Sequence record: OQ446694.1 | Source: Escherichia phage Killian | DNA length: 64,000 nucleotides | Direction: 5' to 3' (one strand) | Shown here: positions 12,211-24,745 of the stretch, one piece after another | How positions within the stretch are numbered: position 1 is the stretch's first letter | Layout of the letters: each line of letters opens with the position of its first letter | Position numbers and translations under genes: made by a program | Notes under the pieces: generated by a model | Seen by the model: the letters and a program-made list of their open reading frames with translations, nothing else | Database searches by the model: none | Told to the model about the DNA's origin: nothing

Positions 12211-12746
12211 TTACTATTGCAACAGTATTGTACAGTTTCAATATGAATATCGTAAATTTTATCCATATCAGGAGATTTAACAGGCTCATCGATTATATAC
12301 AGAATTCGAGAAAGCGTTAAACCTCTGAACTTGCTACCTCTATTACCAACAAAACTACGGACAGAATCAGTAAATAAACGGAATCGAATATCATCGCTAG
12401 AATAACGAGAAAATTCTTTTTTAATGTGGTCCGCAGAAATTTTAGCGTAAGATGAAGTATTAGAAAGAACAATAACTGTTCCACCGTCATACAACCAATT
12501 AGCAGCAAAGTTAGTCACAGCAATTGATTTACCGGATTGACGTCCACCATCTAGTCGAAGTGTGCAGTATTCTTTAAATAAATGTGGCGAATCAGGTACA
12601 TAAAATCCACTATTACAAATTTCTTCTACTCTAGCATCAGAATGGTGTGTAAAAGCATTCATCAGGGATAGATAAGGACCAGTTAAAAATGTTCTCATTT
12701 TGTTATCTCTAAATTTGGGCCATTCCATGGCGCATGAATTTTCCAT
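12156..12746 (-). CDS. Hypothetical protein with P-loop-like motif (start uncertain)
   Basis: GGRQSGKS Walker-A-like and YIIDEP Walker-B-like motifs; 5' end overlaps the extended denV ORF. Confidence 0.45.
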
Positions 12747-13260
12747 TTCTGTATTTACCCATTACCGCACTTGGGCTCGACCTTATTACAGGTTGGCGGG
12801 AATCCCTCATAGAATCATGAGGTCCAGCTTGTTCCCATGTTATTTGAATGTAAATATTTTTGCCGTAGTATTTATACCAGTGTGGCTTCATTAAAATTTT
12901 TTCATCGAGTCGTTGTTGACTCAACTTAATAGCTGATTTGCATGGGTTATAATCATTTTTCCATTCTGCTGGAATATCGCTGATGTCAGGAACTTCAGTA
13001 TCTTTTATACTAAACCCACGTTTTAAGCATTCCATTATAATGTCTGATTGACGCTTTCGCAAAAATTCTAACTTATCGTAAAAGAACGTGACATGACCAG
13101 AACCTAAAATAAACTCGGAAGATATTTTAAAATCTTTAACCCGTTTACCATTTGCCACGTGTTTACGAACTATACCAAAAACACGTGGCAATTCACGGTA
13201 TTCTGCAATTAAATGTTGGTCAGCAAGTTCAGATACTAAAGTCAAATTAATACGAGTCAT
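12709..13260 (-). CDS. denV: Endonuclease V (pyrimidine-dimer DNA glycosylase/AP lyase) with C-terminal extension
   Basis: [29 protein letters not shown]... matches T4 DenV N-terminus (catalytic Thr2 amine, Glu23); ORF runs to 183 aa versus 138 in T4 as recalled. Confidence 0.85.
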
Positions 13261-13317: not shown

Positions 13318-13620
13318 TTATTTACCTTTAATTACTTTAGCTGCTTCGATAGCCGCTTGCTGAAGGTCATCCATAGACATACCGAATTTAGAAGCAAAGT
13401 TATCAATTTTCTTTTCGACAGCATTCAAAGGCTTGGCCTGTTTACCTTCATTAGCGCCAGGAAGAGCGAGAATACGCTCTTTGTCAATATAAAGGCTTAC
13501 AAGTTTCTTACGGTCTTTATCGGACAAATCGTGAAATGAATGGGCCTTTTTATTTATAGCGGCTTCTAATTTACCTGCACTCACTCGCGCTTCAGTAATA
13601 AATTCTTGATATGTTTTCAT
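13318..13620 (-). CDS. ipII: Internal protein II (capsid-packaged, CTS-bearing)
   Basis: 100 aa; N-terminal capsid-targeting sequence MKTYQEFITE (gp21 cleavage after I-T-E); position between denV and e. Confidence 0.75.
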   Translation of the reverse strand: MKTYQEFITEARVSAGKLEAAINKKAHSFHDLSDKDRKKLVSLYIDKERILALPGANEGKQAKPLNAVEKKIDNFASKFGMSMDDLQQAAIEAAKVIKGK

Positions 13621-13691: not shown

Positions 13692-14222
<531 letters not shown>

Positions 14223-19321: not shown

Positions 19322-19987
19322 TTAAAATTTCATTTTTCGACCTTTAAACCATCCTTCTGGAATTGGGTCAGTTTTCTTAATACGTTTAGAAACTTTTTCA
19401 TCTAATGAATGAATCCACATCATACCAAATTGGGAATTCTTTTCGCCCTGTTGATGTTTATTTCTGGCGTGAGATTCTTTCATTTTATTAATAGTTTCAG
19501 GAGTATGGGTCTTGCCCAAGAAAGATTTAGTATTTAAAAATTTCTCTCTATACTTAGGATTATCCCAAAGCTGTTTAAACCTTTCTGAACCCATTTTACG
19601 ATATTTTTCTTTAAGGTCTGGGTCGTTCTCAAATCTGGTTTTAAAAGCGGCAGCTCCTTTTAAGGAAGCTTCTTTCTTTTTATCCAAATATTCTTTAGTG
19701 TTTAAATGGTCCCAACCACCTTCACCACCTAATTTCAAATTATAAACATCAGGGCGCTTTAAAAACTCTTCAGTCACAATATTCTTTTCTGACTCAAACA
19801 TAGAGGTTTTATCGTCAAAGAACTCTAATATTTCTTTAGAAAAATTTTCTATACCATACTTATCTTGGGCTCTTTTTAATAATTTACCAGAACCCATATA
19901 TCCATCATCTAAATTTTCGGTAGAATGAGCGCCTATATAGATTTTATTATTAATTTTATTTGTTATTTTATAAATGTAATGGAACAT
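19322..19987 (-). CDS. segB: GIY-YIG homing endonuclease SegB
   Basis: 221 aa; N-terminal GIY-YIG motif (HYIYKITNKINNKIYIGAH); located between tRNA-Ile and tRNA-Arg as in T4. Confidence 0.85.
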   Translation of the reverse strand: MFHYIYKITNKINNKIYIGAHSTENLDDGYMGSGKLLKRAQDKYGIENFSKEILEFFDDKTSMFESEKNIVTEEFLKRPDVYNLKLGGEGGWDHLNTKEYLDKKKEASLKGAAAFKTRFENDPDLKEKYRKMGSERFKQLWDNPKYREKFLNTKSFLGKTHTPETINKMKESHARNKHQQGEKNSQFGMMWIHSLDEKVSKRIKKTDPIPEGWFKGRKMKF

Positions 19988-20352: not shown

Positions 20353-20516
<164 letters not shown>

Positions 20517-20532
20517 CCATTCTCGCTCTATA

Positions 20533-21165
20533 TTATTTATTACGTGAAAAAGATTGTTCTATCAATTCTGGACACTTTCGTTCTATCCATTTTCTAGCTT
20601 TTTGTGGGCTTATACCTATTATTTTAGCAGCTTTACTAACCCATCCAAATTTAGAATAATCGATTTTAACTAATTCTTCGTAAATTTCATCAGTTAAAAT
20701 CTTTTCATTAATATTTACCAGTAAATGATATAATTTATTATCATTAGCAATTTTAATGAATCTTTTATAGTTTCCGCCTTTACTTAAACCTAATGAAGTA
20801 ATTGCAGATGATATAGTAGCCGAATTTAATAGTGCGTTTAAAATTTCTTCATCACTAACATTATAACGCTTTTTATTATTTTTAATATTTTTACCAGCAA
20901 AAGTATCAGTTTGCGAATGGCAATTTGGACATAATAATCTTAAATTTGATTTAAGATGATTTTTGTTATTTCCATCAATATGGTCTAATTGCAGAACAAT
21001 ATGCTTATTTTGCCATTTTGAAATTTTACAAATTGCACACTCATATGGAAAAATATTTTCTTTTATTATTTTGTCTTTCAGCTTTCCTGTACTAAAATTT
21101 GGATGTTTTCCTTCAAAAATTTCAGCTAATTTAGTATCCATAATATAATTCCCAATTATTAACAA
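20533..21165 (-). CDS. HNH homing endonuclease (zinc-finger HNH core plus C-terminal helix-turn-helix-like DNA-binding region)
   Basis: CxxC...HIVLQLDHIDGNNKNHLKSNLRLLCPNCH HNH/zinc motif; gene abuts the 5' end of the tRNA operon. Confidence 0.8.
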   Translation of the reverse strand: MLIIGNYIMDTKLAEIFEGKHPNFSTGKLKDKIIKENIFPYECAICKISKWQNKHIVLQLDHIDGNNKNHLKSNLRLLCPNCHSQTDTFAGKNIKNNKKRYNVSDEEILNALLNSATISSAITSLGLSKGGNYKRFIKIANDNKLYHLLVNINEKILTDEIYEELVKIDYSKFGWVSKAAKIIGISPQKARKWIERKCPELIEQSFSRNK

Positions 21166-21240
21166 AGGCTCTCAAGCAAGAACCCTTGATGATAGAGGGT
21201 ATTAATCAGTGCGATATGAGTTAATAATAACAAATAATTC

Positions 21241-21756
21241 TTAAAGCAAATTAAACATTTTAACGGTCGGCAAAACAATTTCTTCTTCTATATAAGAGTA
21301 TTTAACACTCTCAACTACACGCAAAAAATCATAATCATAATACTCAGAAGCATTACCTAAAATATTAATAAGTCCTTCAAGCACCTTATTACTATTCACA
21401 AAGAATAAGTCAAATACACGTTCTTCATCTTCTTCAGATTTATTACCAAGATCAACTTCTATGCGAAAGACCTTTTTAATGAATTCTGGATAAAGCTGGT
21501 CTGAGAACAGTCCTTCAACCAAGTATTCATAAATAAAAAGAGATTGCTCGCTGAACAAACCATTACCGCAATAGCGCTCAATTTTAGTACTAGAATATCT
21601 GCTTTTAAATTTCTTTAAAAGATACTGAAATTGTAAGATTTCATGCTCTTCTACGCCAAACAGTGTTTTAGTTTTATAGTTGTCACCATCATTTTCCCAG
21701 GTAGTGACATCAATTACGTAGCCCTGCGGAATTGTAGTACCTAAACAAATATTCAT
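21241..21756 (-). CDS. Hypothetical protein (171 aa)
   Basis: ORF track; no recognisable motif. Confidence 0.5.
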   Translation of the reverse strand: MNICLGTTIPQGYVIDVTTWENDGDNYKTKTLFGVEEHEILQFQYLLKKFKSRYSSTKIERYCGNGLFSEQSLFIYEYLVEGLFSDQLYPEFIKKVFRIEVDLGNKSEEDEERVFDLFFVNSNKVLEGLINILGNASEYYDYDFLRVVESVKYSYIEEEIVLPTVKMFNLL

Positions 21757-21759
21757 TTT

Positions 21760-22050
21760 TCACCACGCTGCGTTAATGTAAGTATATTTAATACATTCAA
21801 GACCCAAAGGATTCTTGAAAATATCATATTCAAGAGGACCTTTTTCTGTTTCAATAAAGAAATCAAAATTTACTGTATTAAATTTACGTTCTTCCTTCAC
21901 TAATTTAACTTGAGAAGATGAACGGTCAATGTAAACCCTTTCAACTTCAAAACATGTTAAAATGCCATAATCATCAATCAAAGCTTTAGCCGCGTCTTGA
22001 TCATATTTATATCCATTTTCAATGGATGATACTTTCGCATAAAGAATCAT
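21760..22050 (-). CDS. Hypothetical protein (96 aa)
   Basis: ORF track. Confidence 0.5.
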   Translation of the reverse strand: MILYAKVSSIENGYKYDQDAAKALIDDYGILTCFEVERVYIDRSSSQVKLVKEERKFNTVNFDFFIETEKGPLEYDIFKNPLGLECIKYTYINAAW

Positions 22051-22052
22051 TA

Positions 22053-22451
22053 TCAGCCTTCATCAACAATAGTGTGAGTATTGGCATTTACGATTTGCCA
22101 CCAGTCAAATCGATTAGAACCCATCGGTTTGTTTTCATTTTCTTTGATAATGTCACGGAGTTCATCTTCAGAGAATGCTTTAGCGATTAAATCGGTATAC
22201 CCACCACGGGGATAATAATTATCACCTGCAAACAAAAGGAAATTTACCTTCCCGGAAGCAACATATGCTTCCTTAGGATACTTGTTTCCTGCGTGGTCAA
22301 CCACTTCAATATAACGGTAAGGAATATCGGTTCTTTCAACCCATTGCCATGCCGCCGCAGGGGAATCGAAAGCATCTACACCTAAACGATTATCTTCATC
22401 TTTAGACGGATTATTTTCGTAATCCGCATATACATAATATTCAACGTTCAT
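22053..22451 (-). CDS. Hypothetical protein (132 aa)
   Basis: ORF track. Confidence 0.5.
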   Translation of the reverse strand: MNVEYYVYADYENNPSKDEDNRLGVDAFDSPAAAWQWVERTDIPYRYIEVVDHAGNKYPKEAYVASGKVNFLLFAGDNYYPRGGYTDLIAKAFSEDELRDIIKENENKPMGSNRFDWWQIVNANTHTIVDEG

Positions 22452-22636
22452 TATTCACCTTTAGAAATTTTATCCATAACGATAGCAATTAAACCAATTA
22501 AAAATGCTACTACAAGTGAAAAAACATTTTCTGCCGTAGTCAATAATCCGCATATAAATCCAACAAACATTGAAAAACTGAAAGCGGAAGCAGAAATTGC
22601 AATAGCAACATTTCGAATTAATTCACAACGTTTCAT
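22451..22636 (-). CDS. Small two-helix membrane protein (61 aa)
   Basis: Track ORF begins in the promoter/upstream gene; true start ATG 22636 with GAGGAGAA SD; sequence MKRCELIRNVAIAISASAFSFSMFVGFICGLLTT... Confidence 0.45.
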   Translation of the reverse strand: MKRCELIRNVAIAISASAFSFSMFVGFICGLLTTAENVFSLVVAFLIGLIAIVMDKISKGE

Positions 22637-22664
22637 TTTATTCTCCTCAGTAGTTGATAGGGTA

Positions 22665-22693
22665 ATAGTATCACTACCCCATCTAAAAGTAAA
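22665..22693 (-). promoter_or_regulatory. Sigma70-type phage early promoter cassette
   Basis: Minus strand TTTACT-N17-TGATACTAT. Confidence 0.6.
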
Positions 22694-22694
22694 C

Positions 22695-22928
22695 TTATTT
22701 TTTACGAAAAATTGATTTATTTTCTGCTGCCCATTTTTCAATAACTGCAACAGGACCAGTAACAACAATTTTATCACCGTAATCTTCTGCGGCGAGTTGA
22801 CCGAAATTATCTAATGCATCACGAAGAACTCCATGAGGCATTTCACCCATTTTATCTTTCTTGCCGGTGTAAATAAACTCAGCTTTTACATCAGAAGATT
22901 CAGCGATAAACTCTTTGAAAGTTTTCAT
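22695..22928 (-). CDS. Capsid-targeted internal protein (CTS-bearing, ~77 aa) at the ipI locus
   Basis: N-terminus MKTFKEFIAE (CTS with gp21 site I-A-E); start taken at second ATG. Confidence 0.6.
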   Translation of the reverse strand: MKTFKEFIAESSDVKAEFIYTGKKDKMGEMPHGVLRDALDNFGQLAAEDYGDKIVVTGPVAVIEKWAAENKSIFRKK

Positions 22929-22962
22929 TTTGATTTCCATTTGGTTTTGTTTTGATAGGGTA

Positions 22963-22991
22963 ATAGTATCACAGCTAAAACCCTATGTAAA
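22963..22991 (-). promoter_or_regulatory. Sigma70-type phage early promoter cassette with conserved upstream AACTTTGTGAAATTATTTT element
   Basis: Minus strand GTTTACA-N17-TGATACTAT. Confidence 0.65.
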
Positions 22992-23004
22992 CAACTTTGT
23001 GAAA

Positions 23005-23262
23005 TTATTTTAAATCTTCTAATCGTTTCTTCATCTTAGAACCATTCTTAGCGATTTCTCCTGCATCAGAGCATAATGCTAAAAGCGCTTTAACTTTAGT
23101 TTGGTCTCCTTTAAAAGATGAAGGATCGACTGCAGCAGCAAGTTCTTTAATACGAGAGAAAAGACGCTCGGCTTCAGCTAAAGCCATTCCAAGCTTTACT
23201 TCCATACCGTGGGAAGATTCAGTGATAGTAGTTTTTGTAGCAAACTCTTTGAAAGTTTTCAT
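23005..23262 (-). CDS. Capsid-targeted internal protein (CTS-bearing, 85 aa) at the ipI locus
   Basis: N-terminus MKTFKEFATKTTITE (CTS-like, I-T-E cleavage site); AGGAAA SD. Confidence 0.6.
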   Translation of the reverse strand: MKTFKEFATKTTITESSHGMEVKLGMALAEAERLFSRIKELAAAVDPSSFKGDQTKVKALLALCSDAGEIAKNGSKMKKRLEDLK

Positions 23263-23292
23263 TTTATTTTCCTAATTAATTTTGATGAGGTA

Positions 23293-23321
23293 ATAGTATC
23301 ACTACTAAAACCCCGTGTAAA
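23293..23321 (-). promoter_or_regulatory. Sigma70-type phage early promoter cassette with conserved upstream element
   Basis: Minus strand TTTACA-N17-TGATACTAT; upstream AACTTTGTGAAATTATTTT identical to the copy at 22992..23010. Confidence 0.65.
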
Positions 23322-23334
23322 TAACTTTGTGAAA

Positions 23335-24019
<685 letters not shown>

Positions 24020-24020
<1 letters not shown>

Positions 24021-24745
24021 TATAGTACCTTTAGTGTATTTTTAATTTTAGAAAAAAGTTCTTCAAGAGAACCATCGTTTGTAATTACTAAATCGCCATC
24101 ACGAATTGGCAATCCAGCTTCTGTAATATGAGTATCATTGGATTTTTGACCAGGACGAACTACATGAATTACTGTAGCACCCATCGCCCTAGCCGCATCC
24201 ATTTCATGGTCTTGACGAGTATCAGGAACGATATAATAATCATAACCTGAGTTAAATTTATCAAGATAATCTAAAGCAAATAATTTTACCCAATACATGC
24301 GGTCGAAGTTATTAACAATCAAATCCGTACCTAGGGCTTGCATCAGACGACGGACTGACCATTGATCTTCAATATTATTTATAACGTCAGCAATCTTGTT
24401 AAATGCTACGAAAGTAACCGATTCTTTTCCTTCGTCATCAAAAACAAACACGCCTTTAATTGGGCTTTTACTATTAAGATAGCAAAATGCTTGTTCCATA
24501 ATCGTAATTACTTCTAATTTAGTCAGATTTAAATTAGTCTCGCGATCATAGTCAATTCCTTCAAACTCTTTACGAGTTAAACAAGGATAGTCAGTGTTTG
24601 CTGCAAATACGCCCCATGCATAAGCCAATGCATCTTTAATAGGACCAGCAAGTTGATATTTAACTGCAGAATAATTATTCATGATAAAATCTGCAGTAGT
24701 ATCTTTTCCACTACGCTTTACACCACTTAAAAAGATTAGTTTCAT
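24020..24745 (-). CDS. 1: Deoxynucleoside monophosphate kinase
   Basis: 241 aa; P-loop GVKRSGKDT; matches T4 gp1. Confidence 0.93.

Follow-up and report, generated by a model that had tools for sequence, protein, structure and literature searches.

Gene content of the 57B-to-trna.4 interval

The window is a 64,000-nucleotide stretch of Escherichia phage Killian DNA (OQ446694.1). Two small adjacent genes on its minus strand, encoding the internal proteins Ip5 and Ip6, lie between gene 57B and a run of four further open reading frames, and a third Ip gene lies at a separate site.

23335..23790, minus strand: gene 57B, Acb1 (anti-CBASS nuclease), upstream flank; Pfam PF23474, E 2.6e-60; 100% identical to T4 57B
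23005..23262, minus strand: Ip5, internal head protein, 85 aa, MKTFKEFATKTTITE/SSHG...; leader residues 1 to 15, predicted gp21 cut after E15; phrog_3499, E 1e-49
22695..22928, minus strand: Ip6, internal protein, 77 aa, MKTFKEFIAE/SSDV...; leader residues 1 to 10, predicted cut after E10; phrog_8111, E 1e-49
22451..22636, minus strand: trna.4 homolog, 61 aa, two hydrophobic segments; 100% identical to T4 Trna.4; phrog_1692
22053..22451, minus strand: trna.3 homolog, 132 aa; 64% identical to T4 Trna.3 and 99% to Bas37_0258; phrog_1411
21760..22050, minus strand: trna.2 homolog, 96 aa; 93% identical to T4 Trna.2; phrog_2023
21241..21756, minus strand: 171-aa open reading frame (orf171); phrog_2290, E 1e-67
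20533..21165, minus strand: HNH homing endonuclease, downstream flank; phrog_14736, E 5e-124; 98.5% identical to Bas37_0256
13318..13620, minus strand: ipII homolog, 100 aa, MKTYQEFITE/ARVSAGK...; from the leader regular-expression scan and the list of open reading frames

The gene order is that of T4 (57B, ipI slot, trna.4, trna.3, trna.2), with 57B and trna.4 identical to their T4 counterparts, and a synteny comparison placed the Ip5 and Ip6 genes at the T4 Ip locus between 57B and trna.4. The combination of Ip genes in this slot differs among T4, T2, Bas37 (Escherichia phage KarlGJung, MZ501089), and Bas42-44. This variable ipI locus was reportedly described by Repoila et al. in 1994 (EMBO J 13:4181). 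The second Ip locus, between the lysozyme gene e and denV, holds the ipII homolog and no ipIII. An earlier note on this DNA had given all the coordinates of the two minus-strand genes correctly and had assigned them to the variable ipI position, as the synteny and the differing Ip sets bear out. It had also put the locus between the tRNA operon and 57B; the 57B flank stands, but on the tRNA side an HNH endonuclease gene also intervenes. By T4 flank mapping, that gene occupies the place of tRNA-Gln, and ARAGORN found no tRNA-Gln.

Both genes are genuine coding sequences. Pairwise comparison of Ip6 alleles gave dN/dS values of 0.24 to 0.51, which indicates true coding, and chance open reading frames are ruled out because hundreds of genomes conserve the genes, because dN/dS stays below 1, and because a knockout has a phenotype. 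An alternative upstream ATG for Ip6, at 22940, lacks a ribosome-binding site.

Capsid-targeting leaders

Ip5 and Ip6 both begin MKTFKEF, in which residues 4 and 7 are aromatic, and the gp21 motif L/I-x-E closes both leaders (I13-T14-E15 in Ip5 and I8-A9-E10 in Ip6). We took as the mark of a T4-type leader an L/I-x-E at the end of a propeptide of 10 to 19 residues. In such leaders residues 4 and 7 serve targeting and residues 8 and 10 serve processing at the gp21 motif L/I-x-E, a residue rule that derives from mutagenesis of IPIII (PMC9026906). The two sites match these rules, so the earlier identification of T4 capsid-targeting sequences in both genes holds. Both leaders likewise agree with that of T4 IPI, MKTFKEFTSTTTPVSTITE, in which the site is I17-T18-E19. 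A regular expression for the leader, applied to the six reading frames of the whole window, matched only Ip5, Ip6, and the ipII homolog.

By the biology of T4 IPI to IPIII, the N-terminal leader would carry Ip5 and Ip6 into the prohead scaffolding core, where the prohead protease gp21 would cut it off after Glu15 (Ip5) or Glu10 (Ip6). The mature proteins of about 7.5 kDa, at several hundred copies each, would be retained in the head, accompany the DNA into the cell, and thereby act ahead of all phage gene expression. T4 IPI to IPIII are present at about 360 copies in the virion (PMC9026906). Here, we infer head packaging and gp21 processing from the leader alone. No late promoter (TATAAATA) stands immediately 5' of the Ip genes, the nearest on the same strand lying inside gene 1 at 24376..24383, and expression during head assembly is thus an assumption.

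Promoter/stem-loop cassettes and gene exchange

Three early promoter elements separate the genes of the interval.

23263..23341, minus strand: cassette 1, early promoter/stem-loop (PeSL type); 19-mer 23323..23341; -35 TTTACA 23321..23316; -10 TACTAT 23298..23293
22929..23011, minus strand: cassette 2, early promoter/stem-loop; 19-mer 22993..23011; -35 TTTACA 22991..22986; -10 TACTAT 22968..22963
22637..22694, minus strand: third early promoter, shorter cassette; TTTACT 22693..22688; TACTAT 22670..22665; 17-nt spacer (from inspection of the sequence)

Exactly two copies of the 19-mer AACTTTGTGAAATTATTTT are present (22993..23011 and 23323..23341), where 0.03 would be expected by chance, and each is followed by TTTACA, 17 nt, and TACTAT with an extended -10 TG. 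Each Ip gene therefore has its own early promoter cassette with an identical upstream element, as had been claimed. In cassette 1 a hairpin spans the -10 region (RNA fold of -12.8 kcal/mol versus -7.6 ± 2.5 for shuffled sequences), and the element is nearly identical to the region 5' of T4 ipI; it starts in the last codons of gene 57B (..DDLK and stop). Cassette 2 contains the hairpin ATAGGGT/ACCCTAT (-17.3 kcal/mol versus -7.3 ± 2.6), and its core is identical to the T4 cassette that precedes trna.4. The third cassette, with a 12-bp hairpin (-16.1 kcal/mol versus -7.7 ± 2.3), lies 5' of the 61-aa gene and is predicted to drive the trna.4-to-orf171 operon.

Arbiol is reported to have described, in 2010, PeSL promoter/terminator cassettes of T4-like phages. 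All three sites here join a sigma-70-like early promoter to a stem-loop and are repeated between variable genes, as in that class, for which the consensus in PST/T4 is TTTACW-N17-TAYWAT (Comeau 2014, PMC4122927). Near-identical early promoter/stem-loop elements, together with leader-coding DNA, frame each Ip gene as a cassette. By a mechanism taken from the literature, Ip genes would be swapped, added, or deleted among phages through homologous recombination at such elements. Over their first 21 nt the Ip6 leader and the adjoining Ip5 leader are identical, an identity suggestive of local gene conversion.

Family and fold searches

Cleavage at the predicted sites would leave a mature Ip5 of 70 aa (7.5 kDa, pI 9.2) and a mature Ip6 of 67 aa (7.4 kDa, pI 6.5). 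In BLASTP comparisons with T4 IPI only the leaders aligned (residues 1 to 22 and 1 to 14) and the mature parts did not. The mature parts of Ip5 and Ip6 are likewise unlike each other, as had been noticed from the sequence; that they are diverged copies of one another or of IPI is ruled out, since the similarity is confined to the leader. Scans of all six proteins of the locus against Pfam, NCBIfam, and PADLOC returned no significant family. PHROGs gave the only family match, which restates the name internal head/virion protein.

AlphaFold2 models, whose input alignments were shallow at 10 and 6 sequences, reached mean pLDDT values of 61 and 69; at this low confidence Ip5 (69) is predicted to form a helical hairpin and Ip6 (61) a beta-alpha-beta-beta-alpha arrangement. 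An NMR structure of IPI* was reportedly determined by Rifat et al. in 2008; the fold has two small beta-sheets, with helices N- and C-terminal to them. Foldseek, run with the two low-confidence models against the PDB, retrieved only generic matches of the KH/ferredoxin-like and helical-hairpin kinds, none of which reached E ≤ 1e-3, and IPI* was missing from the top 50; these matches point to no function or mechanism. A PDB sequence search with profiles of the two families found nothing below E 0.06.

Homolog searches with Ip5 and Ip6 retrieved T4-like phage proteins only, and a profile search with Ip5 through 1.8 billion representative proteins recovered only its own family and a 94-aa branch of it. 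Ip5 occurs in at least 268 sequenced phages, T2 among them; its mature part is at least 99% identical in 231 phage records, and the whole protein is 100% identical to Bas37_0261 and to ASO78A_139, which is annotated as similar to RB14 Ip5. Ip6 is present in 230 records. The names Ip5 and Ip6 are found in GenBank and UniRef records, and the families are PHROGs 3499 and 8111. Ip5 and Ip6 are already known, as named internal head proteins of T4-like phages. We are confident in assigning the locus as a whole to a T4-like phage (Tequatrovirus) as its variable ipI site, which here holds the known internal-protein cassettes Ip5 and Ip6.

Possible targets of Ip5

Ip5 was named 30 years ago, and we tentatively suggest that it may be an injected inhibitor of an entry-stage defense of the uropathogenic E. 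coli strain CFT073. Transposon mutants of Bas37_0261 were depleted only in that strain (log2FC of -2.09, about 4-fold; adjusted P < 1e-5), as given in the supplementary table of a preprint (bioRxiv 10.1101/2025.11.20.689424), and stayed near 0 in CFE299, CFE303, CFE331, and CFE336. The signal comes from one screen condition, in which the neighboring 57B was also depleted (-1.56), so that a regional or polar effect could account for it. Ip5 would share the delivery route of Ip6 and would counter another entry-stage defense in CFT073, one distinct from every GmrSD enzyme so far tested. On this reading McrBC, which CFT073 lacks, would not be its target. The GmrSD enzymes from CT596, ECOR21, ECOR17, and UTI89 restrict T2 although it carries a 99%-identical Ip5 (PMC12373910, PMC4437046), so these would not be its targets either. 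Candidates in CFT073 may include GmrSD/DUF262 genes in its immigration control region, or else a cluster of type III restriction and helicase genes (C_RS25365-25385) in the leuX island; C_RS30460/C_RS30465 and C_RS25630 are GmrSD/DUF262 genes of this strain.

It is rather unlikely that Ip5 is a further GmrSD-family inhibitor, aimed at one of the GmrSD-type genes of the CFT073 immigration control region. T4 Ip1, Ip2, and Ip3 do each inhibit one GmrSD type (PMC12373910), and mutants of the Ip5 ortholog are depleted in CFT073 only, a strain that has a GmrSD endonuclease-domain gene and DUF262 genes in the position of K-12 mcrBC/mrr, with c5421 listed as a GmrSD homolog (PMC4437046). However, ip4 to ip10 showed no reproducible inhibition of active GmrSD variants (PMC12373910, Supplementary Fig. 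9), T2 is restricted by four GmrSD enzymes despite its Ip5, and the annotation marks one CFT073 DUF262 gene as partial.

We also doubt that Ip5 lacks an anti-defense role altogether, being instead a basic head-core or DNA-associated protein whose CFT073 signal is noise or a polar effect. A head-core or DNA role was once proposed for the internal proteins, and an assembly role was suggested for IPIII, mutants of which assemble heads more slowly (PMC9026906). The basic pI of mature Ip5, its predicted simple helical hairpin, the depletion of the adjoining 57B, and the fact that the preprint's authors left Bas37_0261 aside would all fit. Yet the depletion is strain specific, appearing in one of five isolates at adjusted P < 1e-5, and insertions in Bas37_0261 were neutral on K-12 and in the reference library (saturation of 1.0). 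In K-12, moreover, 0260 was not subject to polar effects from insertions in 0261 or 0262, for which the means were 263 and 292, respectively, versus 8.4. The remaining interest of the locus lies in the putative target of Ip5.

The downstream trna.4-to-orf171 operon

The earlier note had counted four unknown open reading frames downstream of the Ip genes as part of the plastic locus. Its 61-aa two-helix membrane protein does have two hydrophobic segments and is the homolog of T4 Trna.4. Three of the four, however, are homologs of the conserved T4 genes trna.4, trna.3, and trna.2, and the run lies mostly outside the plastic locus. The fourth, orf171, is found in many relatives (ASO78A, JK1, Bas42-44, and a T2-type record) and is absent from T4 and Bas37. 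We conclude that trna.4 to orf171 is a conserved early operon outside the internal-protein system. That these genes are anti-defense genes acting jointly with the Ip genes seems quite improbable: they are small, early, non-essential, and close to the anti-defense genes Acb1, Ip5, and Ip6, and T4 Trna.2 was enriched in a pull-down of the defense protein DRT1 (PMC13275509), but their products lack a leader and gave no family match in Pfam, NCBIfam, or PADLOC, and trna.4 and trna.2 are strongly conserved rather than variable. Moreover, Bas37_0259, the trna.4 ortholog, is non-essential, and neither five clinical isolates nor K-12 revealed a conditional phenotype for orthologs 0257 to 0259 (bioRxiv 10.1101/2025.11.20.689424).

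Ip6 as a predicted McrBC inhibitor

E. coli K-12 has a type IV restriction enzyme, McrBC, which cleaves DNA containing hydroxymethylcytosine. The closest characterized relative of Ip6 is Bas37_0260, which is 92.2% identical over 77/77 residues and 94% identical in the mature part. Like Ip6, it comes second after 57B, and its leader is of the same type and ends in the same IAE site; the Bas37 genes around it are 98 to 100% identical to the neighbors here, whereas orf171 is present here only. Genetic work in the 2025 preprint established Bas37_0260 as a leader-bearing inhibitor of K-12 McrBC, showing that its knockout yields a McrBC-sensitive phage and that insertion mutants are about 30-fold depleted on K-12 but not on the isolates or on K-12 ΔRM (bioRxiv 10.1101/2025.11.20.689424). 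The CFT073 immigration control region contains no mcrBC, which fits a dispensable Ip6 in that strain. From its ortholog, we infer that Ip6 is likewise a McrBC inhibitor, and it would shield unglucosylated hydroxymethylcytosine sites. The T2/T6-type beta-alpha-glucosyltransferase, in contrast to the T4-type beta-gt, leaves part of the hydroxymethylcytosine without glucose. It is very unlikely that the allele here differs in specificity and fails to inhibit K-12 McrBC: Ip-to-target specificity is narrow (PMC12373910), four of the six differing residues (F4Y, K5Q, S11T, S12A, A16V, and V59A) lie in the mature part, and the Ip6 of JK1 and VR7 forms a second allele group at just 75% identity, but the mature changes are conservative (T/S, A/S, V/A, and A/V), and the two groups share 37 invariant columns in their alignment.

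The proposal of injected anti-restriction proteins was thus sound as to mechanism, with leader-bearing proteins at a variable ipI locus, but not in calling the genes uncharacterized. Both were already named, and near-identity to a characterized protein, which the earlier note had itself given as grounds against its reading, is what Ip6 has in Bas37_0260.

Comparison with known systems

That T-even phages bear swappable cassettes of pre-packaged inhibitors, each directed against one modified-DNA restriction enzyme, is an established principle, and the Ip5/Ip6 locus leaves current understanding unchanged. Knowing which Ip proteins a phage carries, in this case IpII, Ip5, and Ip6, helps to forecast the E. 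coli strains open to infection by it and bears on the choice of therapeutic phages.

The Ip5 genes of RB14, RB32, RB70, and T2 lie next to 57B, as here, with no substantive difference; the mature part of the RB32 protein is 100% identical to that of the present Ip5. The PeSL cassettes of T4-like phages (PMC4122927) share with those here a stem-loop, a repeated AT-rich upstream block, and flanking genes that vary between relatives. They differ in that their hairpin lies 5' of the promoter, whereas here it overlaps the spacer and -10 region, and in that the repeat here reaches into the final codons of the preceding gene (..DLK and stop). T4 Ip2 and Ip3 have the leader MKTYQEFIAE, cut after E10 as predicted for Ip6, and are injected proteins with one target each, Ip2 inhibiting the GmrSD of ECOR21 and Ip3 that of ECOR17 (PMC12373910); they are encoded at the other Ip locus, from e to denV, and their mature sequences are unrelated to Ip6. 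T4 IPI resembles Ip5 and Ip6 in genomic slot, promoter cassette, and leader type, and it resembles Ip5 further in its I-T-E site and its small mature part with a pI of about 9. IPI inhibits the GmrSD of CT596, whereas the target of Ip6, predicted through its ortholog, is McrBC.

Gene order and the two leader-bearing genes

The window is a segment of a T4-like (Tequatrovirus) genome, and the genes considered here are read off the minus strand.

Gene order of the locus, from 57B toward the tRNA genes
gp3, gp1 and 57A, (-), start of the gene order, before 57B
23335..23790 (-), 57B (Acb1), Pfam PF23474 at E 2.6e-60, T4 protein 100% identical
23005..23262 (-), 85-aa ORF, Ip5
22695..22928 (-), 77-aa ORF, Ip6
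22451..22636 (-), 61-aa ORF, T4 Trna.4 at 100% identity
22053..22451 (-), 132-aa ORF, T4 Trna.3 at 64% identity
21760..22050 (-), 96-aa ORF, T4 Trna.2 at 93% identity
21241..21756 (-), 171-aa ORF, T4 counterpart absent
20533..21165 (-), HNH endonuclease, followed by tRNA genes

T4 has, at the equivalent place, 57B, ipI, trna.4, trna.3, trna.2, and tRNA-Gln. Of the ORFs that the earlier note counted as four unknowns, three are conserved T4 genes (trna.4, trna.3, and trna.2) lying outside the variable part, the fourth being the 171-aa ORF. When DRT1, a defence reverse transcriptase, was pulled down, just two T4 proteins were enriched, and one was Trna.2, the homologue of the 21760..22050 product (PMC13275509). 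The tRNA-Gln gene is absent from the window, its T4 site being exactly replaced by the HNH homing endonuclease gene, the flanks of which (20440..20526 and 21155..21248) match T4 tRNA-Leu and the spacer beyond tRNA-Gln, one per side. The same replacement is found in Bas37 (phage KarlGJung, MZ501089). The tRNA region holds a second homing endonuclease gene, a GIY-YIG ORF of 221 aa (19322..19987, -) between a tRNA with anticodon CAT and tRNA-Arg, which has the length and position of T4 segB.

The two adjacent small genes do encode a capsid-targeting leader with an I-x-E site, as had been proposed. Both products begin with MKTFKEF, where T4 IPI has MKTFKEFTSTTTPVSTITE; the 77-aa protein carries the site as IAE10, the 85-aa protein as ITE15. 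When the IPIII leader was mutagenised, capsid targeting depended on residues 4 and 7, and processing on residues 8 and 10, with gp21 cleaving after L/I-x-E (PMC9026906); both leaders obey these rules. A regular-expression search of all six frames of the window matched only Ip5, Ip6, and an ipII homologue at 13318..13620, with no match to ipIII, and the Ip set of this phage appears to be IpII, Ip5, and Ip6, without IpI or IpIII. The ipII homologue (minus strand, 100 aa, MKTYQEFITE/ARVSAGKLEAA...) has lysozyme e (13692..14186) on one side and denV on the other. The denV-like ORF (12709..13260, -) is 183 aa long, compared with 138 aa for T4 DenV, and beyond ...KYYGK its frame runs on into unrelated sequence, overlapping the next ORF; loss of the stop codon, gene fusion, or an error in the sequence may account for the extension.

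Identity of Ip5 and Ip6

The earlier note correctly read the locus and its kind of biology, but the proteins are not uncharacterised: both genes are already known and named, and for an orthologue nearly identical to Ip6 the target has been demonstrated. Megablast of the locus matched 864 phage records, 43 of them spanning at least 80% of its length with identities reaching 98.6%. The 85-aa gene is labelled Ip5 in ASO78A ("similar to RB14 Ip5") and RB32, ipV in GiZh, and Ip5 in the UniRef entries of RB70 and T2; the 77-aa gene is Ip6 in JK1, ip6 in VR7 and VR26, and likewise in UniRef. In PHROG, each protein falls in a family that bears the name internal head/virion protein (E 1e-49). By tblastn with the mature parts, 268 records carry Ip5 at ≥90% identity, of which 231 reach ≥99%; Ip6 was found in 230, comprising 180 at ≥90% and a second allele group of 50 at 60 to 80%.

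In AlphaFold2 models built from shallow family alignments, Ip5 is predicted to form a helical hairpin (helices 17-44 and 54-84, pLDDT 69) and Ip6 a small beta-alpha-beta-beta-alpha domain (pLDDT 61). Neither model matched the PDB in Foldseek at E≤1e-3, PDB sequence searches with both proteins gave no matches, and an exhaustive profile search with Ip5 returned its own family only.

Ip6 and probable McrBC inhibition

The T4 proteins Ip1, Ip2, and Ip3 have separate targets, each blocking a different type IV restriction enzyme of the GmrSD kind (PMC12373910). Bas37 has two genes where T4 has ipI, and one of them, bas37_0260, was described in a November 2025 preprint (10.1101/2025.11.20.689424) as a leader-bearing McrBC inhibitor. 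Its disruption caused a strong defect on K-12 BW25113 and none on ΔRM, a K-12 without restriction systems, or on clinical isolates, and a clean knockout was specifically sensitive to McrBC. Extended Data Table 7 of that preprint gives resampling results for five uropathogenic isolates versus K-12 BW25113; there, the log2FC of bas37_0260 was +4.6 to +5.2 in all five, which means that its mutants were depleted only on K-12.

The window Ip6 is 92.2% identical to Bas37_0260 (71/77 residues) and, judged from this identity, is an orthologue of the genetically characterised McrBC inhibitor. In the mature part 63 of 67 residues agree. The Bas37 57B, trna.4, trna.3, trna.2, and HNH gene are 98 to 100% identical to those in the window. 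The Bas37 genome encodes both an alpha-glucosyltransferase and a beta-alpha-glucosyltransferase. Modification of the T2/T6 type leaves part of the hydroxymethylcytosine unglucosylated, which would explain exposure to McrBC. The immigration control region of isolate CFT073 (NC_004431, 5162679..5173048) is without mcrBC and mrr, and the absence of mcrBC fits with Ip6 being dispensable there.

A CFT073-specific signal for Ip5

The window Ip5 is 100% identical to Bas37_0261, a gene that is tabulated in the same preprint and not discussed in its text.

bas37_0261 in five uropathogenic isolates versus K-12 BW25113
CFT073: log2FC -2.09, mean 263 to 61, adjusted P printed as 0.00000
CFE299: log2FC -0.01, not significant
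CFE303: log2FC -0.01, not significant
CFE331: log2FC -0.13, not significant
CFE336: log2FC +0.26, not significant

The published screen values point toward a role for Ip5 that is specific to CFT073. A regional effect may underlie the signal, since 57B was likewise depleted in CFT073 (-1.56, adjusted P 0.003); insertions in 0261 and 0262, however, were nonpolar on 0260 in K-12. In the same table the trna.2, trna.3, and trna.4 orthologues had no effect in any isolate. Where mcrBC would be, CFT073 has a partial DUF262 gene and a GmrSD endonuclease-domain gene, and the region further holds symE, an EcoAI-family type I system, and then a 550-aa DUF262 protein. The CFT073 gene c5421 is a GmrSD homologue according to He et al. 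(PMC4437046). The simple reading would be that Ip5 inhibits GmrSD. However, the GmrSD variants tested were not reproducibly inhibited by any of ip4 to ip10 (PMC12373910, Supplementary Fig. 9), and T2, with an Ip5 99% identical, is still restricted by GmrSD of CT596, ECOR21, ECOR17, and UTI89, which argues against it. The genes of the CFT073 immigration control region are candidate Ip5 targets, and Ip5 is the one loose end deserving experiment.

Exchange of Ip units between phages

The variable locus and the conserved leader were already described by Repoila et al. in 1994, according to later papers that cite that work (PMC3012670, PMC4122927, and PMC12373910), in agreement with the variation among T-even phages stated in the earlier note.

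Occupancy of the slot adjoining 57B
T4: ipI alone
Window, Bas37, Bas42, ASO78A: Ip5 and Ip6
Bas44: ipI and Ip6
Bas43, JK1: Ip6 alone
T2-type record OM339528, 2222..3136: Ip5, then an unrelated 102-aa leader-bearing protein, MKTFKEFINE/AAAPKTF...

In OM339528 the 57B gene is called at only 68 aa and may be disrupted; Bas43 has a similar 57B fragment of 68 aa. A further 226 records hold an Ip5 branch at 54% identity. Its genes occupy the second Ip locus, flanked by lysozyme e and denV, as in slur14 (NC_028448, 2138..2419; 93 aa, leader MKTYSEFLSE). One and the same mature domain is therefore present at both Ip loci, having moved between them.

Over their first 21 nt, the coding sequences of Ip6 (22908..22928) and Ip5 (23242..23262) are identical, ATGAAAACTTTCAAAGAGTTT, whereas Ip6 of Bas37, ASO78A, and JK1 begins with ATGAAAAC(T/G)TA(C/T)CAAGAATTT. 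Because these 21 nt of the window Ip6 leader equal those of Ip5 and are unlike other Ip6 genes, gene conversion between the adjoining leaders is suggested. Between Ip6 alleles dS is 0.37 to 0.56, versus a 2 to 3% difference in the flanks, and dN/dS between allele groups is 0.24 to 0.28; on these sequence comparisons, the alleles are old, moved by recombination, and under purifying selection.

Each gene has its own early-promoter cassette with an identical upstream element, as the earlier note saw. This 19-mer occurs exactly twice, versus 0.03 expected, and after each copy come TTTACA, 17 nt, and TACTAT with an extended -10 TG. A third, shorter promoter lies upstream of trna.4, and hairpins cover the -10 region in all three cassettes (-12.8, -17.3, and -16.1 kcal/mol, versus about -7.5±2.5 for shuffles). 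The late-promoter consensus TATAAATA does not stand directly before Ip5 or Ip6; the closest upstream on their strand is at 24376..24383 (-), within gene 1. When the upstream regions of Ip5, Ip6, and T4 ipI are aligned, they have a block in common, TTTAAAATAATTTCACAAAGTT-(A/G)-TTTACA...GTGATACTATTACC, whose start lies in the final codons of the gene before; 57B and Ip5 each end in ..DLK and a stop. The core of the Ip6 cassette is identical to the T4 cassette upstream of trna.4, and the arrangements in the window and in T4 therefore differ by exchange of whole units, that is, promoter, leader, and mature part together. Different Ip combinations in one slot match the PeSL model, in which TTTACW-N17-TAYWAT is joined to a stem-loop (PMC4122927).
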